From the NCBI GenBank assembly GCA_023251835.1, contig JAHEXZ010000018.1, forward strand, positions 1,383 to 65,382: a DNA stretch of 64,000 nt, given 5' to 3'. The notes under the pieces are model-generated. The model was not told the DNA's origin. It saw only the letters and a list, made by a program, of their open reading frames with translations, and made no database searches. This stretch comes from Bacteroidota bacterium. Its GTDB lineage: Bacteria > Bacteroidota > Bacteroidia > 2-12-FULL-35-15. The first letter of the stretch is position 1. Every line of letters begins with the position of its first letter. Below, in pieces: positions 9,834 through 37,273 of this stretch. Both the position numbers and the translations under genes were made by a program.

Positions 9834-11303
9834 TTGGTTCAATATGAAGGAGCAAATTACAAACTAAAAAATTACTTACCTTTGAAACTTATGAAAGAGA
9901 ATATTACCCGTTATCTGCCTTTTGCGACTATTGCAACTGTTGCAATAATGCTACTATCCCTGCATTTTGGATGGTTAAATATGTTTTCATTTGACTCCGA
10001 ATATGCAAATGTTCAGGGCATCGACTATTTTGCCGTGCCTAAATCATTTATAAATTTACTGGAAGGAAGGAGTATTTTCGATACCTGGGGAGGTACACCT
10101 TATGGCCCTCGTGCCACCTGGTACTTGGCACATCCGGCATTCAGCCTGTTTGTGGCTTCCTGGTTTTCATTTTTTCCGCCCTGGATAAGTTACTGGTTGT
10201 TTATTCTTTTTTCAGTTGCTATAATGGCTTATTGTGGACATATAATTTCAAAAACTACAACTTCTACCTTAAACAAACATCTTGCTTATTTTTTGATGCT
10301 ATGTGCTTTTCCGGTTTACTGGATGTTGTATGTAGGAAACATGCAGGCTCCATTGGTATTGGCACTTGCTTTAATAGTAGTTGCTGTGTATGAATTAACA
10401 TATTCAGAAAAGGAGTCGGATATGAAAGCAGCCAATCAAAAGCTATTGGCGGGATTACTTATTTCCTTCTTTAGCAAACCTATCGTATTACTCATGCTCC
10501 CTCTGCTACTTTTTACAAAAGAAACGCGCAGAATAACAATTATAAGTTTATTTATTTATGTTATTGTTTCATTCATTTTTATTATAGTTCCTGTACTAAA
10601 CCCCGAAGGTATTGGCTGGAATAAGCTGATGAGCATTGTGTTTGATTTTGATTTTATAAAAGAAAACATGAATATTTATAAAAATCAGTACAAACTAAAC
10701 GAGTATATGAAGGATAACAGTATCCATTGGTTAAACCTGATAGCACAATCGGAATATAAGTTTATGCACATTGATGTTTTTTCATTACCGGTTTTTATTG
10801 ACACTATCGTTGGGAAGAGCATATCTGCAGGAATATATAAAATACCAATATACATCAGTTTGTTTTTATCCGTGGGAGTTGCAGTAATAAAGGATGTAAA
10901 GATCCGCCTTGAAAGTACATTACTGCTGATTATGGCTATTTCGCTTTCTTTCTTTTTAAGTTATAATACTATATGGGAATACCAATTTACTTCTGTATTG
11001 CCCATTATTGCATTGATGCCGATGTTAAAAGAGAGGGGTGTTTTTTACAGAAAATATATATCACTAATGTGTTGGATAGGAGCACTTATTTACCTTCCCA
11101 GCTTTTATTTTTTAGTACGAGGTGGTGATTTTAGCGGCAATGCTTTAACAATAATCCGTCTTGATAGAATTATACCTGTTCTTTTATTGTTTTTAATAAT
11201 GATATTACAAGTAGGTATAGCTGTTAAAAAGCACGCTCATTTCAAGCAAATGAGCAGGTTTCGTATTCCTGAGAATTTTCCTGAAAAATTATTTTTTGAG
11301 TGA
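9834..11303 (+). CDS. multi-pass integral membrane protein, possible GT-C-fold glycosyltransferase
   Basis: 489 aa, >10 predicted TM helices, first loop FDSEYANVQGIDYF with acidic residues; first gene of the plus-strand membrane-protein block; start could be the internal MKEN at 9891. Confidence 0.45.
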   Translation: MVQYEGANYKLKNYLPLKLMKENITRYLPFATIATVAIMLLSLHFGWLNMFSFDSEYANVQGIDYFAVPKSFINLLEGRSIFDTWGGTPYGPRATWYLAHPAFSLFVASWFSFFPPWISYWLFILFSVAIMAYCGHIISKTTTSTLNKHLAYFLMLCAFPVYWMLYVGNMQAPLVLALALIVVAVYELTYSEKESDMKAANQKLLAGLLISFFSKPIVLLMLPLLLFTKETRRITIISLFIYVIVSFIFIIVPVLNPEGIGWNKLMSIVFDFDFIKENMNIYKNQYKLNEYMKDNSIHWLNLIAQSEYKFMHIDVFSLPVFIDTIVGKSISAGIYKIPIYISLFLSVGVAVIKDVKIRLESTLLLIMAISLSFFLSYNTIWEYQFTSVLPIIALMPMLKERGVFYRKYISLMCWIGALIYLPSFYFLVRGGDFSGNALTIIRLDRIIPVLLLFLIMILQVGIAVKKHAHFKQMSRFRIPENFPEKLFFE

Positions 11304-12800: not shown

Positions 12801-13247
12801 ATGAAAAACAAGGTGCTTTCAGTTACAGAATGTGTATTAACATTGGCCTTACTTGCTGTTATAGTATCGCAGCTATATGTGATGTTTAGTATTTATGAAG
12901 AGACGTTTGAAAGTCCAGTAAGATATTTTAAACAAAATTATGGGACAGATTATATAACCCAATATGGGAACCGCTATACCGAGATCAGAGAATGGCTTCC
13001 CCCGTCAACAATACTATCTTATATTGGAGAACCTAATGAGAGCTTTTCTATGGGCTGCTTTAATTATGTACTTACACAATATTATTTATCCCCCAATTTA
13101 ATCTATAGAAACAATAACGACTTTGATACTATCATTTACAATCTTTATAACTCGAAACGTGTTAGTGATGCCACTAATTTTCATTTAAATAATGGGTGGC
13201 ATATTGTTAAAGATTTTAATAACGGCTTAATTCTACTTGCCAAATGA
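12801..13247 (+). CDS. small N-terminally TM-anchored protein, cassette partner (family S4, copy A)
   Basis: 148 aa with one N-terminal TM. Its C-terminus NNGWHIVKDFNNGLILLAK is shared with the 18203 and 21704 proteins. It overlaps the downstream gene by 4 nt. Confidence 0.65.
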   Translation: MKNKVLSVTECVLTLALLAVIVSQLYVMFSIYEETFESPVRYFKQNYGTDYITQYGNRYTEIREWLPPSTILSYIGEPNESFSMGCFNYVLTQYYLSPNLIYRNNNDFDTIIYNLYNSKRVSDATNFHLNNGWHIVKDFNNGLILLAK

Positions 13248-14638
13248 TATTATTTTTTTTAATACTTGTTTCCTTCATTTTGGGATTCTCATTTTGTTTC
13301 GCACTGTTCAGGAACACAGCTTTTTATAATTTACGTATACTATTCAATCTTTCTATTCCAATAGGAATAGGTGTTTCATCTATTGTTTTTGTCTTATTAA
13401 GTATAATGGACTTCACGCCATTATTAATTTTATTCGTACAAATCATACTCATACTTTTTCTGTTCTATAACAATCTTAAATCTAAACCTTATTCTAATTA
13501 TACTATTATCAATGGGGGAATATCTAATCTAAAAAAACAGGTTCAGGAACCTATATTTTTGCTATTGATTATAATATACATATATGCCTGGATCACAAAT
13601 GCAGGGATATTCTTCTTTGATAGCGTCAAAGAACCCCATGGGTTATGGGATGCTTTTAATTACTGGAATCTGAAAGCAAAGATAATAAACCGCTCCCCCA
13701 ATAATTGGCCAGCACTATTTCATCAAATGGTTTCAGAAGATTTCCATCCGGATTATCCATTATTACAAACCGGATATATCGCATATTGCTGGACATTCCT
13801 GAAAAATGAAAGTGTTTGGGTGCCAATTACCATTTCCTTCATTTTCACTTTTTGTACAATAGGGCTATTATCAGCATCTGTTAGTTTTTTCACAAACAGA
13901 ATACGAGGCCTGATTGCAGGGTTAACGCTACTATGTACTCCGTTTTATATGACGATGGGCGACTCTCAGTATGCTGATATCACTGTTGGTTTTTTTTATC
14001 TTGCAACAGTAGTGCTGCTAACCTTGGCCCGTGATGAACCAATTATAAAACTACAATTGTTAATTGCAGCTGGCATTACAGCAAGTTTGTGTGGATGGAG
14101 TAAAAATGAAGGGCTATTATTTATTGCCTGTTTAATTATTTCACAACTAACGTTATTTCCTGTAAAGAATACCCGCGAATTAATGAATGAAATAAAATAT
14201 TTAATACTTGGGATACTTCCCGTACTGCTAATAATACTATACTACAAGATGAGAATTGCTCCCTCCAATGACATTCTGAAAGCTCAAGGTGAAAAAACGC
14301 TGACTAAACTTACTGACTGTTCCCGATATGCAACTATAGCCAAGTGGTATATCAGCACAATAGCTTCATTCGGGAAATGGATGGTTAACCCGTGGTGGTT
14401 CTTCCTTTTTGGGGTTTTATACAAGGGGATAAATATAAAGAAAATGTTTCCTGGCATGATTGCGAACTATACACTATTGGTATTGATGTTAGTTGGCTTT
14501 TTCTTTATTTATATTGTCACACCGTTAAATTTAGAATTTCATCTTTCTACCTCTTTGCACAGATTATTTTTTCAATTATTTCCAACATTTATATTTTTGT
14601 ATTTTCTTTCAATCGGAAATAGAACTTCAATAACTTAA
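13244..14638 (+). CDS. multi-pass membrane protein family M3 (copy A), putative lipid-linked-sugar glycosyltransferase/polymerase
   Basis: 464 aa. Conserved blocks DSVKEPHGLWDA, DYPLLQ, FIFTFCTIGLL, MGDSQYAD, WSKNEGLLFIACL and SLHRLFFQLFPTFIF are shared with 18757..20214 and 20226..21707. Confidence 0.7.
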   Translation: MILFFLILVSFILGFSFCFALFRNTAFYNLRILFNLSIPIGIGVSSIVFVLLSIMDFTPLLILFVQIILILFLFYNNLKSKPYSNYTIINGGISNLKKQVQEPIFLLLIIIYIYAWITNAGIFFFDSVKEPHGLWDAFNYWNLKAKIINRSPNNWPALFHQMVSEDFHPDYPLLQTGYIAYCWTFLKNESVWVPITISFIFTFCTIGLLSASVSFFTNRIRGLIAGLTLLCTPFYMTMGDSQYADITVGFFYLATVVLLTLARDEPIIKLQLLIAAGITASLCGWSKNEGLLFIACLIISQLTLFPVKNTRELMNEIKYLILGILPVLLIILYYKMRIAPSNDILKAQGEKTLTKLTDCSRYATIAKWYISTIASFGKWMVNPWWFFLFGVLYKGINIKKMFPGMIANYTLLVLMLVGFFFIYIVTPLNLEFHLSTSLHRLFFQLFPTFIFLYFLSIGNRTSIT

Positions 14639-14654
14639 TTTCTCTTTTATAGAT

Positions 14655-16163
14655 ATGAATAAACTAAAAACTATTGTAAGCAGCAACTACTTTTTTGTGG
14701 CTATTGTCCTTTATTATAGTTTATTTTATGTTTTATTTGGAGAGCAATATCCTTTTAAAGCCGGGTTTAGTACTGACGGACGAGTATATGAAAGTATTGT
14801 CTTCAGTTTTTCACAAAGCTATTATTTTGATTCCTATTATATACACCGGATACTTCCCTCACTCATTATCCGCATCTCATTTAATTTATTTTCAATAGAC
14901 ATGACTGAGGCAAATATTCTTTTTGCATTTCAGATTTTAAATATTGTCAGTCTGGTTATATCAAGCTATTTCTTAAAAAAAATATTTCTTATTTTAAAGA
15001 TTTCTCTAAAAAGTCAATTGCTTTTTTTTATAATGTTCTTATTCAACTTTGGCGTTATTAAATATCAATTCTATTTCCCTTCAATGACAGATCAACTTGC
15101 TTTAATGCTGAGCACTCTTTTGCTATATTTTTATCTGAGAAACAATGTTGCAGGTTTGGTAATTTCAACAATTGCATTAGCATTCACCTGGCCAATGGCC
15201 TATTATCTTGGTCTGATATTAATTGCCCTTCCATTTGCGGTACTACCCTATTCACAAGCCAGCAAGCTGCAAAAGAAAGCTGTCTATAGTATCTCTGTTT
15301 TATACATTCTGATACTATCAACAATAATTGTATTTATTTTGAATCTGGATATTAAAGTAGCTTTTGTCGCAAAAATCGATCGTGGGTGGCTCGCTTTACC
15401 CTTAAGCATCGCAGGAATAGCAACTATCTACTTTTTTTTCGGAAAACTATTTCTTAATAAAGCACTATTTAATGTTTTATTATTTATAAAAAAAATTGAT
15501 TATAAACGATTAGCTATATCGGGCATAGTTTTTATTACTGTTTATTTAATTATCGGAGCCCTTCATCCCAAACCTACATTTTTATATTCTATTTCACAAA
15601 CCCTTATCGATCCTGTTCTTTATTCTTTTATTAAACCTCTCATTACGATAGTTGCTGATGTCAGTTATTTTGGTGTATTAATATGCCTCCTCATATTATT
15701 CTGGAACAGCTTTTGTAAAATTGCTTCGCAAATGGGGTGGGGTATTGTAATAGCCATGGGGCTGAATTTGTTTTTATTTGGGCTGGCACCCCAAAGCAGA
15801 CATTTAATAAATTTACTCCCCTGGTTAATAGTCATACTGGCAAAAGCATTGGACAAATATTCATTTCCAAATCATTTTTATATTATTGTTGGCATATTAA
15901 GTATCATCGCATCAAAAGTATGGTTACCATTAAATATTTATGATTACTATAAAACAATGGCTCCCACGGATGAAAATGGCAATATAGGCTTTCCTGACCA
16001 GATATTATGGATGAATATCGGGCCATGGATGGATACACAGATGTATTACGTACAAGGCATAGCGGCTTTAGTAATCATGGCAATATTTTTTCTTATGCTT
16101 TATAAAATAGAAATAAACAAATCAAATCGGATACGGTTAATGAGAAAATTTCATGTAAAATAG
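14655..16163 (+). CDS. multi-pass integral membrane protein (possible GT-C / polymerase-like)
   Basis: 502 aa, ~12 TM, first loop STDGRVYESIVFSF; unique family in window. Confidence 0.5.
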   Translation: MNKLKTIVSSNYFFVAIVLYYSLFYVLFGEQYPFKAGFSTDGRVYESIVFSFSQSYYFDSYYIHRILPSLIIRISFNLFSIDMTEANILFAFQILNIVSLVISSYFLKKIFLILKISLKSQLLFFIMFLFNFGVIKYQFYFPSMTDQLALMLSTLLLYFYLRNNVAGLVISTIALAFTWPMAYYLGLILIALPFAVLPYSQASKLQKKAVYSISVLYILILSTIIVFILNLDIKVAFVAKIDRGWLALPLSIAGIATIYFFFGKLFLNKALFNVLLFIKKIDYKRLAISGIVFITVYLIIGALHPKPTFLYSISQTLIDPVLYSFIKPLITIVADVSYFGVLICLLILFWNSFCKIASQMGWGIVIAMGLNLFLFGLAPQSRHLINLLPWLIVILAKALDKYSFPNHFYIIVGILSIIASKVWLPLNIYDYYKTMAPTDENGNIGFPDQILWMNIGPWMDTQMYYVQGIAALVIMAIFFLMLYKIEINKSNRIRLMRKFHVK

Positions 16164-16189
16164 TGCATATTGTTATATACCAATCTTTG

Positions 16190-16924
16190 CTATTTCGCCT
16201 TGACGTAATATTGCGCTCCCCAAGGGCACCATTTTAAATATTTTTCTATAGCACCCAAAAAAGAAAATGCCTTAGGGAAAAATAAAACATATTTTTTATT
16301 CACTAAACTATAACCAGCCTCACTACACATTTGCATAAACAAAGAAGGTTTAATCATTTTACATCCCACATCAAATTCACAGGTTTTAAACACTTTTCTT
16401 GTTAAAGGATTCTTAGGATTATGTTCAAAAACATACAAATATCCTTTTGAAGAAAGCAACATTCTCAATTGTTTTAAAGTTTTGATATGTAGTTCCTCGG
16501 GGATATGATGAAATACATTTGCAACAAATATTATATCAAACCTTTGGTTTAATGATGCCAGTTCCTGAACATCATGAAATGTTATAAATTGAATATTGGT
16601 AAACTGCTTATTTTTTTCTTTAGCTACAGTAATTGATTTCTCTGAGATATCTACAGAACAAATTGAACAATCCGGGAAATAGCAATTAATAAACCTCTCA
16701 CTTTTTCCAACACCACAACCAAAATTCATTATTTGTATATTTTTAGTTTTGATTGTTTGGTCAGCTACATAATCATCAAATACCGTTCTTATCTTATGTT
16801 CATCAAAATATGATGCTTCGTATCCGGATGCACTTATACTTTTTTGAAGCAACTCATTATAATCATCAGCAAAGTTATCGAACTCAACTTCATTCTTTTT
16901 TCTTTCATTAGTATTTACAGCCAT
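16190..16924 (-). CDS. class I SAM-dependent methyltransferase
   Basis: 244 aa; motif I MNFGCGVGKSE, methyltransf_11/12-like spacing. Confidence 0.7.
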   Translation of the reverse strand: MAVNTNERKKNEVEFDNFADDYNELLQKSISASGYEASYFDEHKIRTVFDDYVADQTIKTKNIQIMNFGCGVGKSERFINCYFPDCSICSVDISEKSITVAKEKNKQFTNIQFITFHDVQELASLNQRFDIIFVANVFHHIPEELHIKTLKQLRMLLSSKGYLYVFEHNPKNPLTRKVFKTCEFDVGCKMIKPSLFMQMCSEAGYSLVNKKYVLFFPKAFSFLGAIEKYLKWCPWGAQYYVKAK

Positions 16925-16975
16925 AGCATTTCCTTAACAGGGTTTATATCGAATAAACTCTTAGGGTGGATTTTA

Positions 16976-18067
16976 TTATACTTTATGTTTTGTTTCTTTT
17001 TTATCAATTATTTTTTTACCTAATTTCTGAAATGGTAATTCAATGTATCTGTATGTAAATGACGAAATCAACATTGTTAAAAGGATAACGATATAAAAGC
17101 GTATTATATAATTAGCAATGTCGCTACTAAAATAGTCTGTAAAATTAAAATATAACAGCCAGTGCAATACTGCAAAATGAACAAGGTACATACTAAAGCT
17201 GATTTTACCAATGTATATGATAACCGGGTTAACAAGTAATATTGGAGAATATCGGCTTAAGGCAAGAGCAACTATAAAAAAAGCTATTGCCCAAAATAAG
17301 TAGGAGGGAAATAAATAGTCAATACCGGTAGCCAATTGAATCCAAAGTAGAAGCCCCAAAAAAAGTAAGAATTTACCGGACAGTCTGTAGTCCTGTTCAT
17401 TATTCATCACATAAAAATACAGAAGTACTCCTAATGCAAATACGGGAAGCTGGCTTGGGAAATACATAAACAGGTATTCTTCCCATAGCCTTTTGTCAGT
17501 AACAAGAGGAAAATTAGATAAAAACACATAGAGTAGTGTTTTAATAACAATGGATATTATAAAAAATAATAATGCATCATTTTTATTTTTTATTCTCAAA
17601 AATAAAAATGGCAAAATCATATAAAATGTCATTTCTACGGCAATAGACCATCCTCCCGGCACAAGACTATTGATCCAATAAGGATAAAACCCATGCATAA
17701 AAAAGAGATTGGATACTATATTAGCAACAGAAATATGATCGGCATCTCCAAGCCAATACCTTTGCCCTAATCCATCCTGAATAATATAATAGATAATTCC
17801 CAAATAGTACATCGGTGCTATCCTAAAAAAACGTCTAATAAAAAAATTTTTCACAGAACTATGTTCCTGGTTAATACGTGTTTTAAAGGACAAGAATAAG
17901 GTAAATGCACTTGCAATATAAAACAGTTGAACTCCTCTGGCACCTTGTTCAACAATATTACGTATCATAGCCGGCACATTAAAATGACCATACTGGCCGG
18001 TATGTACCATAAGAATACCCAGAACGGCAAATCCTCTTATTGCATCAATGTAATTGAGTTTTTTCAT
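16976..18067 (-). CDS. acyltransferase family 3 (OafA/YrhL-like) membrane O-acyltransferase
   Basis: 363 aa, 10 TM, N-terminal MKKLNYIDAIRGFAVLGILMVH characteristic of Acyl_transf_3. Confidence 0.75.
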   Translation of the reverse strand: MKKLNYIDAIRGFAVLGILMVHTGQYGHFNVPAMIRNIVEQGARGVQLFYIASAFTLFLSFKTRINQEHSSVKNFFIRRFFRIAPMYYLGIIYYIIQDGLGQRYWLGDADHISVANIVSNLFFMHGFYPYWINSLVPGGWSIAVEMTFYMILPFLFLRIKNKNDALLFFIISIVIKTLLYVFLSNFPLVTDKRLWEEYLFMYFPSQLPVFALGVLLYFYVMNNEQDYRLSGKFLLFLGLLLWIQLATGIDYLFPSYLFWAIAFFIVALALSRYSPILLVNPVIIYIGKISFSMYLVHFAVLHWLLYFNFTDYFSSDIANYIIRFYIVILLTMLISSFTYRYIELPFQKLGKKIIDKKETKHKV

Positions 18068-18202
18068 TAAATAAAAGCACTTAAACTATTCTAATCCACG
18101 AAACTCTGCCAGTCTGTCTGAAGGTTCCCTTTCGGAAGTTTGTCAAAAACTTTAGATTAAATGGCAAAATATTTCGACAAATTTAAGCAGTTTCTATGAC
18201 TA

Positions 18203-18760
18203 ATGTGTATATTTGATTGTTTACATTCTGACTTACATTATTTTGTAATGCATCATATCTCATATTCTTCTACAATTATAAAAAGCTCTCTTTGTTTTTT
18301 ACTTTTATGTATAATGGGATGGCAGCAATGGGTTACTTTTACAAAATATATAGATAAATTTTCTGCGCCAATCCAATATATAAGGAATACTTATGGCAAC
18401 GATGATATTTCACAATACAGTAGCAGGTTTGAAGAAGTAAAAAGAATATTTCCAGGGGAAACCCGCCTGACTTATGTTTCAGAAAGCATTGTACCAAATG
18501 CCGGTACCAGGGAAATGCACTTTGCTATTGGTCAATATAATTTAGCTCCGAATTTACTTTTCAGAAATAATCATGTCAGTGATAGTATGGTATACAATAG
18601 TGGTGCTAGCCCTGTAACTTTTTCATCAGCAATTTATGACACTGTTATTTATAACCTTTATAGCTCAGTTCATCTTGATGCTAATAATAATTATTACCTG
18701 AATAATGGCTGGCATGTAGTAAAAGATTTTAATAACGGGATAATTATACTGGCTAAATGA
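18203..18760 (+). CDS. small TM-anchored cassette partner (family S4, copy B)
   Basis: C-terminus NNGWHVVKDFNNGIIILAK; TM segment LCFLLLCIMGWQQW as in copy C; true start may be downstream of 18203; 4-nt overlap with next gene. Confidence 0.6.
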   Translation: MCIFDCLHSDLHYFVMHHISYSSTIIKSSLCFLLLCIMGWQQWVTFTKYIDKFSAPIQYIRNTYGNDDISQYSSRFEEVKRIFPGETRLTYVSESIVPNAGTREMHFAIGQYNLAPNLLFRNNHVSDSMVYNSGASPVTFSSAIYDTVIYNLYSSVHLDANNNYYLNNGWHVVKDFNNGIIILAK

Positions 18761-20214
18761 TGTTTTTTTTATCAATAATCACCTCTCTTTTACTTGGGTT
18801 TACTTTTTGCCATTTTTTTTTTAAGAAAATAAAAAGTATTAACCTGCGTTTCTTCATCAATCTTTCTATTCCTATAGGAATAGGTATTTCATCAATTGTT
18901 TTTATTTTTTTTAATCTGATTGGATTTTCTTCCTCAATAATATTTTTGATTGAAATTGTATCAATAATTTTTCTATACTTAAAATTCAGAAATTATCGTA
19001 TAAAAACCTCTCAAGAAAAATTACTATATCAATACGAGTGGTTTAATCTCAACAAACTTCTCTTAAATCCAGTTTTGCTCATTGCAACCTTAATGTATTT
19101 ATATTCATGGATAATGGATAGTGGAATTTTCTTTTTTGATAGCATTCAAAATCCTCATGGTTTATGGGATGCCTGGTCATGTTGGAATTTAATTTCACGA
19201 TTTATAAGCCGTGCGCCACATGATTGGCCGACTTTACTTCATCAAATGAATGCTATAGATTTTCACCCTGATTATCCCCTGTTACAGCGAGGATTTATTG
19301 CCAGGTGCTGGCTGCTTATTGGGGATGAAAGTGTATGGATACCCATTCTCTCCGCTTTTATTTTTACTTTTTGCACAATTGGTCTTTTATCAAGCTCCGT
19401 CAGCGTATTTACCAATAATAAAACCGAAGGGTTTATTGCTGGTTTAGTGCTTCTTTGCACACCTTTTTTTATGGTTATGGGAGATTCACAGTATGCAGAC
19501 AATACGGTGGGCTATTTTTTTCTTGCGACCATTGTATTATTAACCTTAGCCAGAAGAGGGCATTCTGTAAAACCAAATTTGTTAATTGCTGCCGGAATTT
19601 CAGCAGGATTTGCAGCCTGGAGTAAAAATGAAGGACTGCTATTTATTGCATGTTTATTTGTTTCCCAATTAACACTTTTGTTCTTTCATAAAAATCATCG
19701 TGAATTATTCACCGAATTCAAGTATTTATTTATAGGTATGCTTCCTGCCTTAATATTGGTAGCTTATTTAAAAATTTTTATTGCACCGCCTAACCAGATA
19801 ATGTCTGATCAAGGTTTTAAGACTTTTTCCAAATTAACTGATTCCAGCCGATATGCCATGGTATGGCATTGGTTTGTATATCAATTTAGTTCGTTTGGCA
19901 AGTGGGCATTTAATCCCTGGTGGTTATTCCTCCTGGGTATTCTATTTAAGGGGGGGATAAATATTAAAAACAATAATTATTCTTTTGTTTCCAACTTTAC
20001 CTGTTTTTTATTAATGTTGGTTGGATTCTTTTTTATCGAGGTAATAACGCCTCTTGGTCTGCGTTATTATCTTGCAACATCCTTGCACCGGTTGTTTTTC
20101 CAACTGTTTCCTACATTTATCTTCATGTATTTCCTTGCCATTAATGGTACTTCTTCAGACAGCAGAAAAAATAATATTGCAAGCTTAATTGGCAACCTAT
20201 TTAAGAAAAGATAA
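18757..20214 (+). CDS. multi-pass membrane protein family M3 (copy B)
   Basis: 485 aa; ~65-70% identical by eye to copies A and C across the DSIQNPHGLWDAW...MGDSQYADNTVGYFFLATIVLLTLAR...WSKNEGLLFIACL blocks. Confidence 0.7.
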   Translation: MMFFLSIITSLLLGFTFCHFFFKKIKSINLRFFINLSIPIGIGISSIVFIFFNLIGFSSSIIFLIEIVSIIFLYLKFRNYRIKTSQEKLLYQYEWFNLNKLLLNPVLLIATLMYLYSWIMDSGIFFFDSIQNPHGLWDAWSCWNLISRFISRAPHDWPTLLHQMNAIDFHPDYPLLQRGFIARCWLLIGDESVWIPILSAFIFTFCTIGLLSSSVSVFTNNKTEGFIAGLVLLCTPFFMVMGDSQYADNTVGYFFLATIVLLTLARRGHSVKPNLLIAAGISAGFAAWSKNEGLLFIACLFVSQLTLLFFHKNHRELFTEFKYLFIGMLPALILVAYLKIFIAPPNQIMSDQGFKTFSKLTDSSRYAMVWHWFVYQFSSFGKWAFNPWWLFLLGILFKGGINIKNNNYSFVSNFTCFLLMLVGFFFIEVITPLGLRYYLATSLHRLFFQLFPTFIFMYFLAINGTSSDSRKNNIASLIGNLFKKR

Positions 20215-20225
20215 TTAACCCCACA

Positions 20226-21707
20226 TTAGTCCGTTCTTTTAAAAATTTTTGAAAGTTTAAAATTTTTGAGAGTCCGCCCATTCTGTTTTCGTGTTCTCCC
20301 ATTAGGGATACTTATTACTGTAGAATTATTTTTGAGAGCAACAAAGTATATAAAAATAAAAGAAGGGAATAGCTGTGCGAAAAGCCTGTGTAAGGATGTT
20401 GAAAGATAAAACACTAAATCTAATGGTGTAATAATTTCAACTATAAAAAAACCGACCAGCATTAGTATCAACCATGTGACGTTAGCTATAAAAGAATAGC
20501 TGTACTTTTTTATACTTATTCCTCCTTTAAACAAGATGCCTAATAAAAATAACCACCAGGGGTTAAAAGCCCATTGCCCGAAGATTACAAATTGCTCCTT
20601 ATACCACGACCAGATTATTTCATACCTGGAAAAATCTTTTATTTTTATTAATGTTTGCGGGCCCTGGCCTACCACAATCTGATTAGGAGGAGATATGGCA
20701 ATTTTTTGGTAGATAATCAAAGCTAAAATTGGTAACATACCAATTATTAAATATTTAACTTCTGTAAATAATTCTTTAGGATTTTTAAAAAATAACAGAG
20801 TTAGCTGTGAAGTCAACAAACATACAATAAATAGCAGTCCTTCATTTTTACTCCAGGCTGCGAGTCCCGCGGTGAGTCCTGACGCAATTAATAAACCAGG
20901 CTTTGTAGCAGAATCCTTGCGGGCAAGGGTTAATAGCACGATGCTCGCAAGAAAAAAATAGCCCACTGTATTGTCGGCATATTGAGAGTCGCCAAGGAGC
21001 ATAAAAAAAGGTGTACAAAGTAATATCAGGCCAGCAATCAGTCCTTGTATTTTATTTGTAAAGTAACTAACTGCTGCTGACAGAAGACCTATTGCACAAA
21101 ACGTAAATATAAATGAAAAAGCTATAGGTATCCATACTGTTTCATTTTTCAGGAGTATCCAGCATCTGGCAATGTAGCCTTTTTGTAGCAGAGGGTAATC
21201 CGTATGGAAATCTTCGGAAACCAATTGATGAAAGGAATCTGGCCAATTTACAGGGTCTCGGCCTATCATTTTTGCACCCAGGTTCCAATCCGCCCATGCA
21301 TCCCATAAGCCATGCGGTTCCTTTACGCTGTCAAAATAATAAACACCAATATCTAATAGCAATGAATAAAAATAAACGATTACCAGGAGAAGCAAGAGCG
21401 GATTTTTAGCAAGAGTATTTATAGAAAAAATTTTATTTTCTAGTGTGTTCTTTATGATGCTTTTAAATGGGTTACCGTATTTATAAAACAGAAAAAGTAT
21501 AAATACTATTTCAATAAGGATTACAAATAGTGTTGAAACGCCCAGCAAATTGAAAACAATAAAAATAATTGATGAAACTCCTATGCCGATGGGGATTGAG
21601 GAGTTAACCAGAAAACGAGGAGCATAATTGGCAAATTCTTTAAAAAGAATTTTGCATAACAAAATGCCCAGCAAAAAAGAAGTTAATATGGAAATCAAAA
21701 ATATCAT
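20226..21707 (-). CDS. multi-pass membrane protein family M3 (copy C)
   Basis: 493 aa; same conserved blocks; convergent with copy B (stops 11 nt apart). Confidence 0.7.
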   Translation of the reverse strand: MIFLISILTSFLLGILLCKILFKEFANYAPRFLVNSSIPIGIGVSSIIFIVFNLLGVSTLFVILIEIVFILFLFYKYGNPFKSIIKNTLENKIFSINTLAKNPLLLLLVIVYFYSLLLDIGVYYFDSVKEPHGLWDAWADWNLGAKMIGRDPVNWPDSFHQLVSEDFHTDYPLLQKGYIARCWILLKNETVWIPIAFSFIFTFCAIGLLSAAVSYFTNKIQGLIAGLILLCTPFFMLLGDSQYADNTVGYFFLASIVLLTLARKDSATKPGLLIASGLTAGLAAWSKNEGLLFIVCLLTSQLTLLFFKNPKELFTEVKYLIIGMLPILALIIYQKIAISPPNQIVVGQGPQTLIKIKDFSRYEIIWSWYKEQFVIFGQWAFNPWWLFLLGILFKGGISIKKYSYSFIANVTWLILMLVGFFIVEIITPLDLVFYLSTSLHRLFAQLFPSFIFIYFVALKNNSTVISIPNGRTRKQNGRTLKNFKLSKIFKRTD

Positions 21708-22186
21708 CTTGCAAGCACAATTAATCCATTGTTAAAGTCCTTTACAATATGCCAGCCATTATTCAAATGATAGTTGTTTTTTGTATTTATATGTATAGAC
21801 CAGTGAAGATTATATACTATGGTATCACAATCTATTTTATCCTTAATAAATACACTTGGAGAAGCAAGGTATTGAGTAAATGAATAATTTGCAGACCATG
21901 TAGGGAAATCGTCTCCTGGTTCTCCTATGTAGCAAATATGTGAAGTGTGAGGAAACATTTTTCTAAGCCCTTCATATCTTGTAGCAAGAACAGTAGTCAT
22001 ATAATCTTTTTCATAGTATTTCTTTGTATATGCTACAGGATTGTGAAAACCTTCTTTGTATTTTTGAAAGGTTTTCCATTGTTGCCAGGCCATAAAACTA
22101 ATCAATAGCAACAACAGACCATTTTGTAAATATTTAAGGAGATGAGAATACATCGGAATCTTCAGTAAAGCAAATAATCTACTCAC
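21704..22186 (-). CDS. small TM-anchored cassette partner (family S4, copy C)
   Basis: 160 aa, C-terminus NNGWHIVKDFNNGLIVLAR; 4-nt overlap with M3 copy C. Confidence 0.65.
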   Translation of the reverse strand: MSRLFALLKIPMYSHLLKYLQNGLLLLLISFMAWQQWKTFQKYKEGFHNPVAYTKKYYEKDYMTTVLATRYEGLRKMFPHTSHICYIGEPGDDFPTWSANYSFTQYLASPSVFIKDKIDCDTIVYNLHWSIHINTKNNYHLNNGWHIVKDFNNGLIVLAR

Positions 22187-23537: not shown

Positions 23538-25874
23538 TTAATTCGGGTATTTTCTTTGAAAATCATTTGCGTTAAACCAATATCCATAATCTTTATCAAA
23601 TTTTGAGCGCCACAATGGAAATTCTGTATAAGGGAAATTGTCTGTTATTTCTTTGGCGTTTTCAACATTTTTCCGTAGTTGTTCTGAATCCATAATTTTT
23701 AAATCTAACAAATTAGCTGACGATTTAAAAAGCACCCCCCATTCGTTTAAATCATTCATAACCCTTGGAGTTTGGTCGGCTGCAGCAAAACGGTTCATAT
23801 CAATAGTAATATCATTAGGGCCGCCTATCATAAAGAATCCCGGATAGCTTGGCCCTGCATAAACAGTTGTATTAGGGAATACAACATAATATGATTTCAT
23901 AATCATTTTCACATCTGTCATCGATTCAGGTGGAATCCACATGCACATTATTCCATTTGTATTTAAGTGTTGTTTACATAATTTAAAAAAATCTGAAGTA
24001 TATAAATTTACAGTTCCCGCACTCCATAATGGTGGAGCGGGATCTATTACAATAATATCATATTTCTTTTTCTGCATTAACAAAAAATTCCTGCCATCAT
24101 CCGTATATGTATGAACACGCTTATTAGTGAGCACTTGTTCAGCATCATTGTGAAAATATTTGAAAGTTTCATACTCTTCTCCCACCAATTCAACAACATC
24201 ACAATTTATTTCTTCATGTGATATTGCAGACCTTAACGCAGTTCCCATTCCAAAGCAAATAATCAACATCTCATGCGGATCTTTGTGCATCAAAATCGGA
24301 AGATGAGACATTATTTTTGTTTCCGGAACCAAGGCGGTCATTCCTATTCCATTTATTAGAATCTGTTTATCCAAAGGATTAGTTTTAGAGCCATAAGCCG
24401 TTGCTGTTGCAACAACACCTTCTTTATGATAATAAATTTCATAATCAGGGTTTGTTGTAATTACTCTTTTAATAACAGTATAGAAAGGATCTGGTGCAGT
24501 GAAACTAAAAAAAGCTGTTAATAGAGTCAGCGACATCGCTGCAACTATTGCTGCATTTTTTACAGTTCGGCCATAACCAGTAAGTAAAACAATTAAGCCC
24601 ACACTGGAATTAATAATAGCAAGCAGAATAATTGTTCCCTGAGTTCCTAAAAACTGAATTAAAACATATCCGGAAATCAGCGATCCCAAAATACATCCCA
24701 AAGTATTTACTGAATAAAGTCTGCCAATTCCTCCTCCTATTGTTGAAGTTTTCTCGACATAAATATTTGTAACAATTGGAAATATAAATCCTAATGCAAA
24801 AGTTATGGGAAATACTACTAAAGCTGGTACTATTACTTTAGAGAAACCATAGGACACTTCATTATGCTGGGGTGTATACTGGCAGAAGATATAAATTCCA
24901 ATAATACTATATAAACCAATAAATGTTAACGCTACCCCCAGTATACCCATAGGATTTACAAGTCTTTCAAAATATTTTCCTGATAGAATGCTACCGAGCG
25001 CAGACCCCAACAGATAAATTCCGAGTACCATACTGAAGGCATATATAGATGTTCCCAATTGAAGCTGAAATAACCTGGTCCACACTATTTCAATTGCAAA
25101 TGAAGTGAAGCCTATCATAAAATATGCAAACAAAATAATCTTTCTCTCCTTAGGTATATATGTCGAAATTTTTTGCACTTTGATAGAGTTATTATCTTCC
25201 GTTTTTAATAATGATGAAATACTCAACTTCAAGTCGCTTCGTTCACCGATTACAAAAATAGCAATAGCGCCAACTATTAAATTGATACTAATACCAAGAA
25301 TAATTGTGTTCAGTTCACCAATAGATCCAATTGTAATAAAACCGCTTGCCAACACTCCCACTACAGCTCCAAGTGTATTTAATCCGTATAAGTTGCCCAT
25401 TCCTTCTGCAAAACTTGAATTGCGTTTTTTTGCCTCAGCACTTAATAAGGGTAACGTGCCTCCCATTAGGAAGGTTGGAACAACAAGTAAGATAAATACT
25501 GTAATAGATTGTAAAAATGTGTATAAAAGGGTACTATTCCCAGACAACCCATGAAAGAATTGATATACCGGTATCAGGCCATTAAACAGAAAGAATACAA
25601 CCAATGCCGTAATAGCAATTCCTATTTCCAAGAAAGCATACAACCGTATTAAATTTTTAATTTTATCGATACGCTTTCCTAAAAAGTAGCTGCCTAATGT
25701 CAGCCCTAACATAAATGCAGATAAAACTATAGAGGTTGCATAAACGGTGCTGCCAAGAATCCTTGAAAGCATCCTGAGCCATACGGTTTCATATATTAAA
25801 CCACTTATTCCTGAAAGAAAAAAAATAAAATATATAACACTATTAATACTCTGACCTTTTTTATTATTATTCAT
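23538..25874 (-). CDS. fused MFS-type membrane domain / spermidine-synthase-like (aminopropyltransferase fold) protein
   Basis: 778 aa; N-terminal 12+ TM (FFLSGISGLIYETVWLRML) and C-terminal class-I MTase-like SpeE-type domain (DIIVIDPAPPLWSAGTVNLYTSDFF); a widespread fusion architecture. Confidence 0.65.
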   Translation of the reverse strand: MNNNKKGQSINSVIYFIFFLSGISGLIYETVWLRMLSRILGSTVYATSIVLSAFMLGLTLGSYFLGKRIDKIKNLIRLYAFLEIGIAITALVVFFLFNGLIPVYQFFHGLSGNSTLLYTFLQSITVFILLVVPTFLMGGTLPLLSAEAKKRNSSFAEGMGNLYGLNTLGAVVGVLASGFITIGSIGELNTIILGISINLIVGAIAIFVIGERSDLKLSISSLLKTEDNNSIKVQKISTYIPKERKIILFAYFMIGFTSFAIEIVWTRLFQLQLGTSIYAFSMVLGIYLLGSALGSILSGKYFERLVNPMGILGVALTFIGLYSIIGIYIFCQYTPQHNEVSYGFSKVIVPALVVFPITFALGFIFPIVTNIYVEKTSTIGGGIGRLYSVNTLGCILGSLISGYVLIQFLGTQGTIILLAIINSSVGLIVLLTGYGRTVKNAAIVAAMSLTLLTAFFSFTAPDPFYTVIKRVITTNPDYEIYYHKEGVVATATAYGSKTNPLDKQILINGIGMTALVPETKIMSHLPILMHKDPHEMLIICFGMGTALRSAISHEEINCDVVELVGEEYETFKYFHNDAEQVLTNKRVHTYTDDGRNFLLMQKKKYDIIVIDPAPPLWSAGTVNLYTSDFFKLCKQHLNTNGIMCMWIPPESMTDVKMIMKSYYVVFPNTTVYAGPSYPGFFMIGGPNDITIDMNRFAAADQTPRVMNDLNEWGVLFKSSANLLDLKIMDSEQLRKNVENAKEITDNFPYTEFPLWRSKFDKDYGYWFNANDFQRKYPN

Positions 25875-26085: not shown

Positions 26086-27189
26086 TTATTTTCTTAGCTT
26101 TAATAATTGTTCACATATATACCCAATATCTTCATTGGTTAATGTAGAAAACGTAGGCACACTAATAACATTTTTACTTATATCTTCACATACCGGCAAT
26201 GAATGGGGTTCATAAATTTCCAAGATACTAGAAGCATAGAAACCCGGACGAGTTTCGATTCCTACACTTTTTAACTGTTCTATAAGTTTATCACGTCCTT
26301 GCGGAAATACTTTGCTGTCAAGTTTGAGGGCGATTGCCCATATTACCGCATCAACATCACTATTGACTTTTTGCATGGTAATACCATCTTTGTCTAAAAG
26401 GTACTTTTTATATTCTTCATTTACCCTGTAACGTTCAGTCAATATAGCATCTTTTTGTTCCAACTGAGCTACTCCGATAGCTGCCTGGAAATTAGTAAGC
26501 CGAAAGTTGTGTCCCGGTAATTCGTGCCAATAAAATTTTTTACCCCTGTCCATACCATGGCTGCGATACAGCATCATTCTCTTTTTTAGTTCATCAGAGC
26601 TTGTAACCACCAAACCGCCTTCGCCAGTTGTAATCATTTTTGTAGCTTGTAAACTAAAAGTACTCAGTTCTCCAATTGTTCCGCTTTCCCGCCCTTTATA
26701 TTTTGAAAAGAGTGATTCGGCACAATCTTCAATTACGGCAATTTTATGTACTTCTGCAATTTCCATAATTTCATCCATTGCACATACATTTCCATAGGTA
26801 TGAATAGGGATAATTGCTTTCGTCTTTGTTGAAATATATTTTGGAAGTTCCTCTGCAGATAAACACCATGTGTCCGGATCTATTTCAGCAAAGACTGGCC
26901 TTAACCCCATGTGTATGGCTATATTGGCCGCAGCCATAAAGGCAAATCCCGGCACTATTACTTCATCTCCAGGTTTTAGTCCTAATCCAAGATAAGCCAG
27001 ATGAATGGCTGTAGTTCCGTTAGACACAGCAAGAACATGTTTCTGTTCAAGTAGTTTACTAAAACCGGACTCCATCCTTTCGAGATATTCGCCTCCTGAA
27101 ATCCAAGTAGATTTTAGGGCATCGGTAACATATTCTATTTCATTCCCCCAGAAGTTGGGTTTTGTCCAGGGAATAAATTTATCTTTCAT
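26086..27189 (-). CDS. DegT/DnrJ/EryC1/StrS-family PLP-dependent sugar aminotransferase
   Basis: 367 aa; VSNGTTAIHLA, DEVIVPGFAF and the lysine region SFSLQATKMIT are typical. Confidence 0.8.
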   Translation of the reverse strand: MKDKFIPWTKPNFWGNEIEYVTDALKSTWISGGEYLERMESGFSKLLEQKHVLAVSNGTTAIHLAYLGLGLKPGDEVIVPGFAFMAAANIAIHMGLRPVFAEIDPDTWCLSAEELPKYISTKTKAIIPIHTYGNVCAMDEIMEIAEVHKIAVIEDCAESLFSKYKGRESGTIGELSTFSLQATKMITTGEGGLVVTSSDELKKRMMLYRSHGMDRGKKFYWHELPGHNFRLTNFQAAIGVAQLEQKDAILTERYRVNEEYKKYLLDKDGITMQKVNSDVDAVIWAIALKLDSKVFPQGRDKLIEQLKSVGIETRPGFYASSILEIYEPHSLPVCEDISKNVISVPTFSTLTNEDIGYICEQLLKLRK

Positions 27190-27806
27190 CCGTTTAATTT
27201 GTTAATGTACATGTTCCATTTTAAATTATACATATTAAAGCTGGTACTATATTTAAAACTGTTTTTTACATAAAAGCTATTTGCTTTTTGCTTCACATCA
27301 TGTACCGTGACTTTGTATAGACAAATCCCTCTTTTTAGAAATTCTTTATTTAAGACTTCAACTATTTGTGTTCCCATACCTTTGGCTCTATAGTTGCCGT
27401 CTGTAATAATAGCAACCAACTCTGCTTTTATACCAGTATTCTGCTTTTTAACATAAAACAAAGTTTCAAAAAGTTTAGGAACTATTTGTATTGGATTAAG
27501 AAAAACCCTTGGCAGAATAATTTTAAAATATTTGAGAAATTTTCTGGTAATGATCTTAAATATCTGTTCACTGTCCACAGAAGCAAGAGCAAATCCACAA
27601 ACGGCATTATCTTTTAGAGCAAAAATAAAGAAACCCAGCTTTTCTCTTAAAATATCTGTAAATAACTCCTGTATAAAACGTCTCCCGAATAATGATAAAA
27701 AACCATTGTCCGAAAGGTGTTCCATATATAACCGGGCAGATGAATTTATTAATTCGGAATTAGAACTATCTGTAACAATAAAATCAATGTTACTTTCACA
27801 AACCAT
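27186..27806 (-). CDS. GNAT-family N-acetyltransferase (putative sugar N-acetyltransferase)
   Basis: 206 aa; acetyl-CoA motif A-like ELVAIITDGNYRAKGMGTQIVEVL; 4-nt overlap with aminotransferase. Confidence 0.5.
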   Translation of the reverse strand: MVCESNIDFIVTDSSNSELINSSARLYMEHLSDNGFLSLFGRRFIQELFTDILREKLGFFIFALKDNAVCGFALASVDSEQIFKIITRKFLKYFKIILPRVFLNPIQIVPKLFETLFYVKKQNTGIKAELVAIITDGNYRAKGMGTQIVEVLNKEFLKRGICLYKVTVHDVKQKANSFYVKNSFKYSTSFNMYNLKWNMYINKLNG

Positions 27807-27835
27807 ATTATTTAATTCTGTTGATACTATTTTTT

Positions 27836-28795: not shown

Positions 28796-28992
28796 TTTTG
28801 TTCATTCAAAATATGAAATCCAAATTCAGAATGTTTCCTCTGCATCTCAAAAAAACAGAGACCATCGTCATTAAGTTCTCCGATGAAGTTTGTAATTTTA
28901 TTTTGTACTTTTAATTCTGACAAAATGCAGAAAAAAGTGTTTTTGTGCCCTTGCATAATTACGATAGGAATTTTAAGGTATAACTTCCACAT
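28792..28992 (-). CDS. small ORF (66 aa) filling the gap between C-methyltransferase and NUDIX genes
   Basis: Only evidence is the tight fit: 4-nt overlap with NUDIX start and 20-nt overlap with upstream stop in an otherwise translationally coupled operon; no recognisable domain. Confidence 0.25.
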   Translation of the reverse strand: MWKLYLKIPIVIMQGHKNTFFCILSELKVQNKITNFIGELNDDGLCFFEMQRKHSEFGFHILNEQK

Positions 28993-31335: not shown

Positions 31336-31353
31336 AAGAATATCGATTTGTTG

Positions 31354-32055
31354 TTATAAATTTTTTAATCTTAAAATAAACGTTTCTTTTGTATATCTAA
31401 TGATTCTGAGCAAAAGTGCTTTATTTCCAACCCCTATATTCCTTTCCCCAAATATAGCAGGAATTTGCAATATTGTATAATTTTTTTTCTGCAAATAAAA
31501 CATTAACCGTATAAAATAATCACCAAACCCCCAAAAGATATCATCAAAGTTTAGCTGCTGAATAACTGTTTTCTTTATTGCATAAAAGCCAAATAAATTC
31601 TCCGTAACTTTTGAGAACAGAATTATTCGAATAAACAGGTTAAAAAACCAACTGGATACAATTCGCGAAATGCTCTCATGTTTTTCGAGAGGCAAATACA
31701 AGAACCTGGAAGCAATCACACAGTCATAATATTTTAAGTTATCTATTAGTATTGGTATATACTTTGGCATATGATTAAAATCGGAATCCATTACCACTAT
31801 TATATCACCTGAGGCCTTTTCGATACCACATCGGATAGACTTAGCGAACCCTCTGTCTGTAGTTCTTAAAACAGGTACAACGTAATCATAATTTTTTTCT
31901 TTAATTGAGTTGTATGTTCCATCAGGGCTGTTGTCATCTACCACCAAAATTTCATGTTCGTAATCCTTTAAAACATCATGGATAAAGGGAACTAATGCCT
32001 GTATATTTTCTTTTTCATTGTAACAGGGGAGTATCACGGATATTCTATTAGCCAT
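31354..32055 (-). CDS. GT2 polyprenyl-phosphate sugar synthase (ArnC/DPM1/GtrB-like)
   Basis: 233 aa; ISVILPCYNE, VVDDNSPDGT, VVMDSDFNH (DxD) characteristic of GT2 dolichyl/undecaprenyl-P glycosyltransferases. Confidence 0.75.
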   Translation of the reverse strand: MANRISVILPCYNEKENIQALVPFIHDVLKDYEHEILVVDDNSPDGTYNSIKEKNYDYVVPVLRTTDRGFAKSIRCGIEKASGDIIVVMDSDFNHMPKYIPILIDNLKYYDCVIASRFLYLPLEKHESISRIVSSWFFNLFIRIILFSKVTENLFGFYAIKKTVIQQLNFDDIFWGFGDYFIRLMFYLQKKNYTILQIPAIFGERNIGVGNKALLLRIIRYTKETFILRLKNL

Positions 32056-33678: not shown

Positions 33679-33685
33679 GAAACCT

Positions 33686-34786: not shown

Positions 34787-34794
34787 TTAATTTT

Positions 34795-36553: not shown

Positions 36554-37273
36554 ATGCAAAGCTGGTCGATTATTATCTTTTGTTATAATGAAAAGGGGAA
36601 TGTGGCTCATGTGATACGTGATTGTGTATCCGTTATACGGGCTATTGGAAGCAAGGAAAGGGAAATCATAATTGTTGATGACGGAAGTACCGATGGTTCA
36701 GTTAATGAGATAGAGAATGAAATCATAAAATTTCCCGGGGAAGCTTTTAAGCTGATAAAACATTCTACGAACCTTGGTATAGGTATGGCACTGCGCAGTG
36801 GGTATCAAAATGCGGTATATGAGAATGTGTGTGCAGTTCCTGCCGATAGGCAATTTAATGTTACGGAGTTGCTCCCTTTTTCTGAAATTGAGCAGGAAAC
36901 TTTTGTTTGTTTCTATAGAAAAGAAAACCAAAGTTATTCCCTGCTGCGTAATATCCTTTCTTTATTTAACAAACAATTCAATAAGTTGCTGCTTGGAATA
37001 TCCTTTAAGGATATAAACTGGGTAAAGATATATAAATCTGCTTCTTTGAAAAAACTTGATTTAAAACTGGAAAGTTCACTTATTGAAACTGAGATATGTG
37101 CCAAACTTGTTGCCATTGGAAACAGATTTATGGAGATGCCGTCTATCTATTTACCCCGGAATAATGGAGTTAGTAAAGGTGCTTCCTGGAAAATCGTAAG
37201 AAAAGCGATAACAGAAATGCTTAAAGTATACTTTGCGGTCAGAGTATTTAAATCAAAAATTAAAAAACACTAA
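36554..37273 (+). CDS. second GT2 polyprenyl-phosphate sugar synthase (ArnC/DPM1-like)
   Basis: 239 aa; IIIFCYNEKGN, IIVDDGSTDGS, and an Asp in AVPADRQFN in place of the canonical DxD; divergent from the long minus operon. Confidence 0.7.
   Translation: MQSWSIIIFCYNEKGNVAHVIRDCVSVIRAIGSKEREIIIVDDGSTDGSVNEIENEIIKFPGEAFKLIKHSTNLGIGMALRSGYQNAVYENVCAVPADRQFNVTELLPFSEIEQETFVCFYRKENQSYSLLRNILSLFNKQFNKLLLGISFKDINWVKIYKSASLKKLDLKLESSLIETEICAKLVAIGNRFMEMPSIYLPRNNGVSKGASWKIVRKAITEMLKVYFAVRVFKSKIKKH

Follow-up and report, generated by a model that had tools for sequence, protein, structure and literature searches.

The window, i.e., the whole stretch of 64,000 nucleotides of Bacteroidota DNA analysed here, carries three two-gene cassettes, each consisting of an ORF for a small protein followed by an ORF for a large protein of 464-493 aa. 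We have designated these cassettes A, B and C in the order in which they occur.

12801..13247, + strand: putative small subunit A, an ORF of 148 aa; predicted N-terminal transmembrane (TM) helix and alpha/beta domain, with the NNGWHIVKDFNNGLILLAK beta-hairpin at its end
13244..14638, + strand: putative large subunit A, 464 aa; predicted GT-C glycosyltransferase with a three-helix N-terminal extension; ATGA with the small A stop
18203..18760, + strand: putative small subunit B, 185 aa as the longest ORF; of the "170-aa type", with an insertion ahead of the tail
18757..20214, + strand: putative large subunit B, 485 aa; predicted GT-C, PMT_2 score 36.7 bits; ATGA with small B
20226..21707, - strand: putative large subunit C, 493 aa; predicted GT-C, PMT_2 score 31.1 bits; ATGA with small C
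21704..22186, - strand: putative small subunit C, 160 aa from a GTG

The initial annotation of this DNA had already placed three cassettes at these positions, where the ORFs were indeed found, and had described a 4-nt overlap between the stop of each small gene and the start of its large neighbour, which is seen as ATGA at all three junctions (AAATGA in A and B, AGATGA in C). Cassettes B and C run towards each other and 11 nt separate their stops, again in agreement with that annotation, as is the near-invariant tail of the small proteins, LNNGWH(I/V)VKDFNNG(L/I)I.LA(K/R), which occurs in all three copies and in essentially all of the 120 close homologs listed. The window holds exactly three genes of the small family, and no further ORF in it matches either small-protein HMM. 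Two of the small ORFs are probably shorter than listed: the HMM alignments, which begin at residue 16 of small B and at residue 13 of small C, together with orthologs of 150 aa (L004b, of small C) and 170 aa, point to a start at M16 (nt 18248) and a protein of 170 aa for small B, and to M12 (nt 22153) and 149 aa for small C.

The small proteins are 39-43% identical between A and B and between A and C, and 35% identical between B and C; the corresponding values for the large proteins are 56% for both A comparisons and 60% for B-C. The trees of small and large proteins are congruent, their pairwise identities correlate (r = 0.83), and every window cassette has its own orthologs in other metagenome-assembled genomes (MAGs), i.e., L010b and L012b for B (small proteins, with the large proteins grouping likewise) and L004b for C. 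Because the two trees are congruent, the three copies are, as judged from these sequence comparisons, old paralogs that were duplicated as pairs, which bears out what had been proposed at the outset. A recent inverted duplication of B and C, which their convergent arrangement had also suggested, was rejected: the small proteins of B and C resemble each other no more than either resembles that of A, their large proteins are only marginally closer, and the B and C orthologs occupy separate places in other genomes.

The large and small proteins

The large proteins were initially assigned to an "M3 family", which is not a recognised name; they match Pfam PMT_2 (PF13231) and belong with the GT-C proteins. 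The PMT_2 scores are 27.3 (A), 36.7 (B) and 31.1 (C) bits against a gathering cut-off of 26.1, a margin that is just above threshold and small for copy A. The NCBI label for the large protein, "glycosyltransferase family 39 protein", rests on the PMT_2 domain only, and a profile of 103 homologs matched nothing in the PDB at E <= 1, neither ArnT nor Pmt1/2/4, and revealed no sequence relation to characterised members of CAZy GT39 or GT83 proper. The AF2 model of large A (pLDDT 91, pTM 0.93) has a polytopic GT-C fold. In 62 sequences from loci with GC contents of 35-73%, D136 (of the motif HGLWDAW), D245 and R440 are 100% conserved and K287, E289 and R361 are conserved at >=95%. On the predicted fold and the PMT_2 match, the large protein is a GT-C enzyme of the ArnT/PMT_2 kind. 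The initial annotation had recognised neither protein of the pair, and while this still holds for the small one, which is unannotated, the large one falls within a known class.

Comparison with ArnT (CAZy GT83/GT39; Cupriavidus metallidurans ArnT, PDB 5F15) brings out both the likeness and the peculiarities of the large protein. The two share the PMT_2 match above threshold, and the large protein would likewise be expected to draw on a polyprenyl-phosphate-sugar at the periplasmic face; its invariant acidic residue after TM1 and its conserved basic residues may be a further likeness. The large protein differs in having ~100 extra N-terminal residues that form three helices (residues 2-21, 30-54 and 59-79 in the large A model, ahead of the canonical TM1 at 103-129). 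The PMT_2 match begins at aa 177 in the large protein, whereas in the window's unpaired PMT_2 proteins it begins at 68 and 99. Within this extension G43 is 100% conserved and G14 and G41 are 93-96% conserved across the superfamily, and possession of the extension sets the paired subfamily apart. At its other end, no more than ~8 residues of large A (464 aa) follow its final predicted helix (430-456), so that it lacks the C-terminal periplasmic domain of ArnT, and no solved GT-C is detectably related in sequence to the large protein.

The small protein has no relative in Pfam (no match at E <= 1), NCBIfam or PDB and no catalytic-looking motif. It is predicted to consist of one N-terminal TM helix, in an N-in/C-out topology, and an alpha/beta domain of ~115 aa in the periplasm; in the AF2 model of small A (pLDDT 90.6) the helix spans residues 2-31 and strands lie at 134-138 and 143-147. 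The charge distribution is compatible with a periplasmic C-terminus of the small protein and a periplasmic N-terminus of the large one. The initial annotation had named a lack of homologs as something that would count against it, but the small ORFs are genuine, conserved genes, with 138 close homologs and, by exhaustive HMM search, 273 cluster representatives; small A itself scores E 9e-28 against an HMM built from distant homologs only. The protein is under clear purifying selection, and its best-conserved polar residues are R58, Y74, Q93, Y94 and N114 (91-100%), with D138 at 80%, while Q24 in the TM helix is invariant among 115 aligned close homologs of A3. The conserved Ser and Thr residues sit in predicted helices and strands of the compact, well-folded domain. 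Some members of the family are larger: P0158 and P0260 have extra C-terminal repeat domains, and L107 has an inserted domain. A new protein family of ~270 clusters at 50% identity is thereby defined, and it merits a database entry.

Conservation of the pair

The pair was found in ~90 further loci of very different bacteria, all of them uncultured organisms. All 25 complete pairs from Bacteroidota MAGs have the 4-nt overlap, and each of 66 non-redundant small genes from distant metagenome loci (GC 35-73%, one of them, L023, from Omnitrophota) has a large homolog downstream, with distant partners giving a full-length match to the HMM of the window large protein (E 1e-72 to 1e-81). When sampling began instead from the large gene, a small-family gene lay immediately upstream in three of three cases. 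The expectation that the two genes co-occur, with the small gene conserved beside the large one, thus holds in every readable locus. Of the junctions in the 66 distant loci, 40 have a 4-nt overlap, 14 abut, one has a 1-nt overlap and four have a gap of <=25 nt, while six have gaps of 26-150 nt and one small gene is the first of two tandem small copies. In seven of the 66 loci, then, the genes lie >=26 nt apart, and coupling is not universal.

On another reading, a frameshift or an error of sequencing has broken a single gene in two, or the small ORF is a spurious upstream ORF, and the predicted topology (small C-terminus out, large N-terminus out) would be consistent with a fused protein. We regard this as having next to no likelihood and have rejected it, as the genes are separate in all ~90 independent loci from many assemblies, through several types of junction (4-nt overlap, 1-nt overlap, in-frame stop then ATG, and gaps), and the small protein is under purifying selection. 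The search for fusions that the initial annotation had proposed turned up no protein uniting the two among the homologs listed. This argues against a split gene, but it also deprives a two-subunit reading of the fusion that would prove the pair to be one unit.

A proposed two-subunit glycosyltransferase

Bacterial GT-C enzymes decorate lipid A, O-antigens, teichoic acids and proteins, and to our knowledge those such as ArnT, PglB, the Gtr enzymes and YfhO have been treated as single-polypeptide catalysts. Because the same pair recurs in ~90 loci of very different bacteria, our observations point to an undescribed two-subunit form of this known enzyme class. It seems to us fairly probable that each cassette encodes a heteromeric periplasmic glycosyltransferase that depends on a polyprenyl-phosphate-sugar and whose small subunit is non-catalytic; the physical complex is inferred from the genetics, i.e., strict adjacency, translational coupling and co-divergence, and the donor and acceptor from the relationship of the large protein. 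The large subunit would be catalytic and, by analogy with its class, would work at the outer face of the inner membrane, moving the sugar of a polyprenyl-phosphate-sugar onto a periplasmic acceptor, the lipid-linked donor being made in the cytoplasm by a small GT2 of the ArnC/DPM1/PpgS type. The small subunit would be made by translational coupling with the large one, and the ratio of the two would be fixed because they are so coupled. It would bind the large subunit with its TM helix packed against the family-specific three-helix N-terminal extension, and its alpha/beta domain would lie over the periplasmic face, where it may aid enzyme stability or acceptor selection. The three paralogous pairs may then carry out three different transfers, set within an island of GT-C-like membrane proteins and sugar-nucleotide enzymes that is itself conserved.

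Several observations weigh against this proposal. ArnT, the closest structural relative, functions without a partner protein, whereas the large protein is always preceded by its small bitopic neighbour; the PMT_2 scores barely exceed the threshold, and sequence comparison detects no solved GT-C; seven of the 66 distant loci have separated genes; and there is neither a GT2 gene adjacent to the window cassettes nor an identified flippase. With respect to donor supply, a GT2 of ~230 aa directly flanks the pair in at least 12 distant loci (L020, L023, L030, L031, L034, L041, L043, L047, L048, L058, L045 and L107), its best NCBIfam matches being AglJ, Dol-P-hexose transferase, PpgS and ArnC, but the pair frequently lacks an adjacent GT2, as in L025. 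The GT2 genes of the window lie 9-15 kb away, the nearest ~9 kb from cassette C.

31354..32055, - strand: candidate donor synthase, a 233-aa GT2; PF00535 E 1.5e-25; weakly ArnC/PpgS/Dol-P-hexose-transferase-like
36554..37273, + strand: second candidate donor synthase, a 239-aa GT2; PF00535 E 7e-14; weak NCBIfam ArnC/PpgS-like matches

The first of these shares 29% identity with the GT2 beside the L023 pair, and its best NCBIfam matches are of the ArnC type and PpgS, all below cut-off. Both may serve the cassettes.

A different role for the small protein must be weighed at this point, namely that of a dedicated glycosylated acceptor or a periplasmic handler of the product (glycan-binding protein or chaperone) that is co-transcribed by virtue of a common pathway. 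The PMT_2 family includes protein O-mannosyltransferases, each paralog has its own small partner, the conserved Y, Q, N, R and D residues of the small domain would suit sugar binding, and C-terminal repeats or an inserted domain are what would be expected of a binding module. The conserved Ser and Thr residues, however, belong to a compact folded domain rather than to a disordered S/T-rich stretch, and a TM helix with conserved residues, including an invariant Q24, is unexpected for a mere anchor. Stop/start overlap across genomes is typical of stoichiometric complexes, and it is seen here in most loci over a GC range of 35 to 73%. On balance we consider an acceptor or handler unlikely.

A still less likely proposal assigns the helices another task. 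Counted together, the additional N-terminal helices of the large protein (three) and the TM helix of its small partner make four, as in the four-helix GtrA/SMR-type proteins, and might constitute a flippase or delivery module for the donor that replaces a flippase of the GtrA or ArnE/F type; with the small periplasmic domain selecting the acceptor, the result would be a self-contained machine of two genes, or three with the GT2, a picture to which we likewise give very little weight. The absence of a flippase gene from the GT2-small-GT-C modules would fit it, as would the superfamily-wide conservation of G14, G41 and G43 and of a polar residue in the TM helix of the small protein, and were it true no GtrA or ArnE/F-type flippase would be needed. 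It is speculation without structural support, however: there is no similarity to the GtrA or SMR families (no Pfam match at E <= 1), flippases for polyprenyl-phosphate-sugar donors are frequently encoded elsewhere, and the conserved 115-aa periplasmic domain is left unexplained by the flippase role itself.

Relation to known systems

The nearest parallel to the proposed two-subunit enzyme is GPI mannosyltransferase I, which pairs a catalytic GT-C protein, PIG-M/Gpi14, with a single-pass accessory protein, PIG-X/Pbn1 (PMC9306709; PDB 9WNO), in a heterodimer described as unusual for a glycosyltransferase (PMC9306709). That enzyme is eukaryotic, whereas the complex of the bacterial pair is a proposed one, and the small protein is not homologous to PIG-X/Pbn1. 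If the proposal is correct, a widespread GT-C subfamily with an obligate bitopic partner would be the bacterial counterpart of PIG-M/PIG-X and would offer a handle on acceptor specificity or stability supplied in trans. It also predicts that attempts to express these "family 39" glycosyltransferases heterologously, or to study their structure, will succeed only with co-expression of the small gene upstream.

Mycobacterial GT-C enzymes of the Emb/AftD group bind an acyl carrier protein (ACP), but these partners are cytoplasmic ACPs and not bitopic periplasmic proteins. The mycobacterial PpgS (Rv3631) and GT-C Rv3779 offer a likeness on the donor side, in that the GT2 adjoining the pair aligns with the PpgS model throughout its length (3-205 of 226), although its score of 64 bits is far under the 370-bit PpgS cut-off.

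Phage gtr clusters adjoin integrase genes. Three-component Gtr-type periplasmic glycosylation employs a GtrA-like flippase, a GtrB-like GT2 and a GT-C enzyme (PMC11127046, PMC8035078), and our modules resemble it in placing a GT-C gene beside genes for a small polyprenyl-phosphate-sugar-synthase-like GT2 and a small membrane protein in one operon. They differ in that the small protein does not match PF04138 and, where GtrA has four TM helices, has one, with an extracytoplasmic domain of 115 aa, and in that the module has no flippase and the pair frequently no adjacent GT2. The module of L023 adjoins an integrase gene, as do the phage gtr clusters.

Three old gene pairs

The initial annotation described a two-gene cassette repeated three times in the window, and the ORF listing bears out each copy:

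Gene pairs of cassettes A, B and C (ORF listing)
12801-13247, +, small A
13244-14638, +, large A
18203-18760, +, small B
18757-20214, +, large B
20226-21707, -, large C
21704-22186, -, small C

Also as described, the stop of each small gene overlaps the start of its large partner (ATGA at all three junctions), cassettes B and C are convergent with stops separated by 11 nt, and all three small proteins carry NNGWH(I/V)VKDFNNG..LA(K/R) at the C-terminus. Essentially all of the 120 close homologs listed carry this motif too. An HMM search of the window ORFs detected no small-family member beyond these three. It appears from HMM alignments and from orthologs of 150 and 170 aa that the longest-ORF starts of small B and C lie too far upstream; the true starts are probably M16 (nt 18248) rather than the ATG at 18203 for small B, and M12 (nt 22153) rather than the GTG at 22186 for small C, whose public annotation is inconsistent (called as 129 aa in protein P0003).

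Identity is 35-43% among the small proteins of the window and 56-60% among the large ones. Trees built by neighbour-joining for the small and the large proteins of Bacteroidota loci are congruent, and the pairwise identities of the two proteins are correlated (r = 0.83), indicating that duplication copied whole pairs and preceded the divergence of these MAG lineages, in keeping with the earlier view of old paralogs kept as pairs. In the trees, cassette B groups with the pairs at loci L010b and L012b, C with that at L004b, and A with a clade adjoining tatC. Since B and C show no particular affinity to each other, the inverted duplication first proposed for them is disfavoured as a recent event.

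Distribution of the pair

In a collection of 5.8 billion clustered proteins the small protein has 138 close homologs; none carries a protein name, and for the few that name an organism, it is a Bacteroidota or Bacteroidia MAG. Only 16 loci turned up when 185,579 species genomes were scanned, nearly every one of them in a MAG labelled Bacteroidota, Bacteroidetes or Bacteroidia. Together with the window, these loci contain 25 complete small genes, and each is followed, with a 4-nt overlap, by a large homolog, as the claim of strict pairing would have it; every large homolog there also has a small gene. When 1.84 billion representatives were searched exhaustively by HMM (E <= 1e-3), 273 clusters were recovered, nearly all of 110-180 aa with a common architecture and the motif ..YE.RF..LK..LP..G.VGY..D....Y.LTQYAL.P......GNF......KDFGNGV.LF. 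An HMM built from the distant small proteins alone matches window smalls A, B and C (E 9e-28 to 2e-20). In each distant context that was read individually, a partner of 460-480 aa lies directly downstream, and these partners align with the HMM of the window's large proteins along the entire length (E 1e-72 to 1e-81).

A metagenome scan added 80 loci. Among their non-redundant small genes we took those followed by 300 nt or more of sequence; a large homolog lies downstream on the same strand in 66 of 66. The junction is a 4-nt overlap in 40, abutting in 14, a 1-nt overlap in 1, a gap of up to 25 nt in 4 and a gap of 26-150 nt in 6, while the remaining small gene heads a tandem of two. When large proteins were the starting point (P0382, P0383, P0384), a small-family gene was found just upstream in 3/3. 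No small-large fusion was seen among the homologs found, and one distant member belongs to Candidatus Omnitrophota.

The small protein is a conserved, previously unannotated family and, in its genomic context, the obligate partner of a distinct GT-C subfamily. The partnership is real and non-trivial, with three old copies in the window; the two proteins may form a physical complex. The initial annotation, which did not recognise the family and thought it might be undescribed, holds for the small protein, for which there is no Pfam or NCBIfam match (nor any for its distant relatives) and for which literature searches found no published description; it does not hold for the large protein, a member of the GT-C/PMT_2 superfamily.

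Variants of the small gene also occur: P0158 (261 aa) and P0260 (353 aa) carry one to two C-terminal repeats (YGWAWD..NQP..P..VD.YDG; no Pfam match), a 288-aa product at L107 3175-4041 has a ~130-aa domain inserted after the TM helix, and two tandem small genes precede one large gene at L073 650-1925.

The two proteins and a proposed glycosylation module

The AF2 model of the small protein (115-sequence alignment, pLDDT 90.6) opens with a long helix (2-31) and continues as a compact alpha/beta domain, whose final two strands (134-138, 143-147) are formed by the conserved tail; a predicted N-in/C-out orientation agrees with the lysines at the N-terminus and with the hydrophobic helix. Among 62 sequences, Y74, Y94 and P98 are 100% conserved, followed by R58 (98%), Q93 (96%), G142 (93%), N114 (91%) and F139 (90%), and neither these residues nor the model point to a known catalytic site. 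Q24, in the TM helix, is invariant in the 115-sequence alignment of close homologs (A3).

Two features distinguish the large subfamily, namely three extra N-terminal helices (2-21, 30-54 and 59-79 in the AF2 model) and the absence of a C-terminal periplasmic domain, the chain ending in the membrane region. The helix at 103-129 is regarded as the canonical TM1, and it is because of the extra helices that the PMT_2 match begins only at residue 177, as against 68 or 99 in the window's two unpaired PMT_2 proteins. Across 62 members of the family, whose loci span a GC of 35-73%, the residues G43 (in the extension), G133, D136, A137, W141, N142, P172, D245 and R440 are 100% conserved, and G14, K287, E289 and R361 at least 95%, a pattern that would be expected of a GT-C active site accompanied by a conserved additional module rich in glycine. 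A test for sequence relationship to characterised GT39/GT83 enzymes found none.

The best-supported reading of the cassette products is a periplasmic glycosylation module. A GT2 enzyme would put a sugar on polyprenyl phosphate, a flippase would carry the lipid-linked sugar across the membrane, and the GT-C subunit, its fold borne out by the predicted model and its chemistry presumed, would pass the sugar to a periplasmic acceptor. The small protein would most simply be a stoichiometric, non-catalytic subunit, because translational coupling holds for the majority of loci, in genomes of very different kinds, each paralog has its own co-diverging partner, the small TM helix carries a conserved polar residue, and the paired GT-C proteins carry the conserved glycine-bearing three-helix extension. 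That the small protein is itself the acceptor or a product-binding protein seems unlikely, and that its helix and the large extension form a donor flippase or loading module seems very improbable. The small C-terminus and the large N-terminus are both predicted to be periplasmic, which would make the pair topologically equivalent to a single polypeptide; despite this, it is always split. A split-gene artefact was considered and rejected.

The working scheme proposed for this module resembles that of Gtr-type three-component systems (PMC11127046, PMC8035078), but their small component is the GtrA flippase, which the cassette small protein is not. The proposed subunit architecture is closest to that of the eukaryotic GPI mannosyltransferase I, PIG-M/PIG-X (PMC9306709), although its small subunit has no homology to the cassette small protein.

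Genomic surroundings and candidate donors

The cassettes sit in a 30-kb island (9834-40065) that is unusually dense in polytopic membrane proteins, including the three large subunits, and that may be a periplasmic glycan assembly line.

Other features of the island
9834-11303, GT87-like protein
23538-25874, -, fused MFS/spermidine-synthase-like membrane protein, 778 aa (NF037959, PF01564 + PF07690)
26086-36290, -, sugar-nucleotide tailoring block
32164-33678, unpaired PMT_2 protein
38560-40065, unpaired PMT_2 protein
Also: acyltransferase_3, methyltransferases and two ~235-aa GT2 enzymes

Four polytopic island proteins (493, 502, 410 and 412 aa) have no Pfam or NCBIfam match. The order tatC / GT87-like - 493-aa membrane protein - small - large - 502-aa membrane protein - methyltransferase is conserved next to tatC, recurring in the other Bacteroidota MAGs. 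Two DegT aminotransferases, a GNAT, a double NUDIX protein, a cupin, a sugar C-methyltransferase (PF08421/PF08484), a hexapeptide acyltransferase and a GFO/IDH/MocA oxidoreductase make up the tailoring block, and together they raise the possibility that the donor is an unusual amino or branched sugar.

At distant loci the pair often stands alone amid housekeeping genes. A ~230-aa GT2 directly flanks it in at least 12 of them, with best NCBIfam matches, all under their cut-offs, to AglJ, dolichyl-phosphate hexose transferase, PpgS and ArnC-type undecaprenyl-phosphate sugar transferases. In a Candidatus Omnitrophota MAG (L023 6479-10534), small, GT-C and convergent GT2 genes directly follow a phage-type integrase gene (PF00589), an arrangement that we take to be akin to phage-borne gtr serotype-conversion cassettes.

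Within the window, the MFS/spermidine-synthase fusion directly follows cassette C and the 410-aa membrane protein, inside the glycan island. At 49683-53234 (+), a C39-peptidase ABC transporter (744 aa) and then an HlyD-family protein look like a bacteriocin or peptide export pair unrelated to the cassettes.
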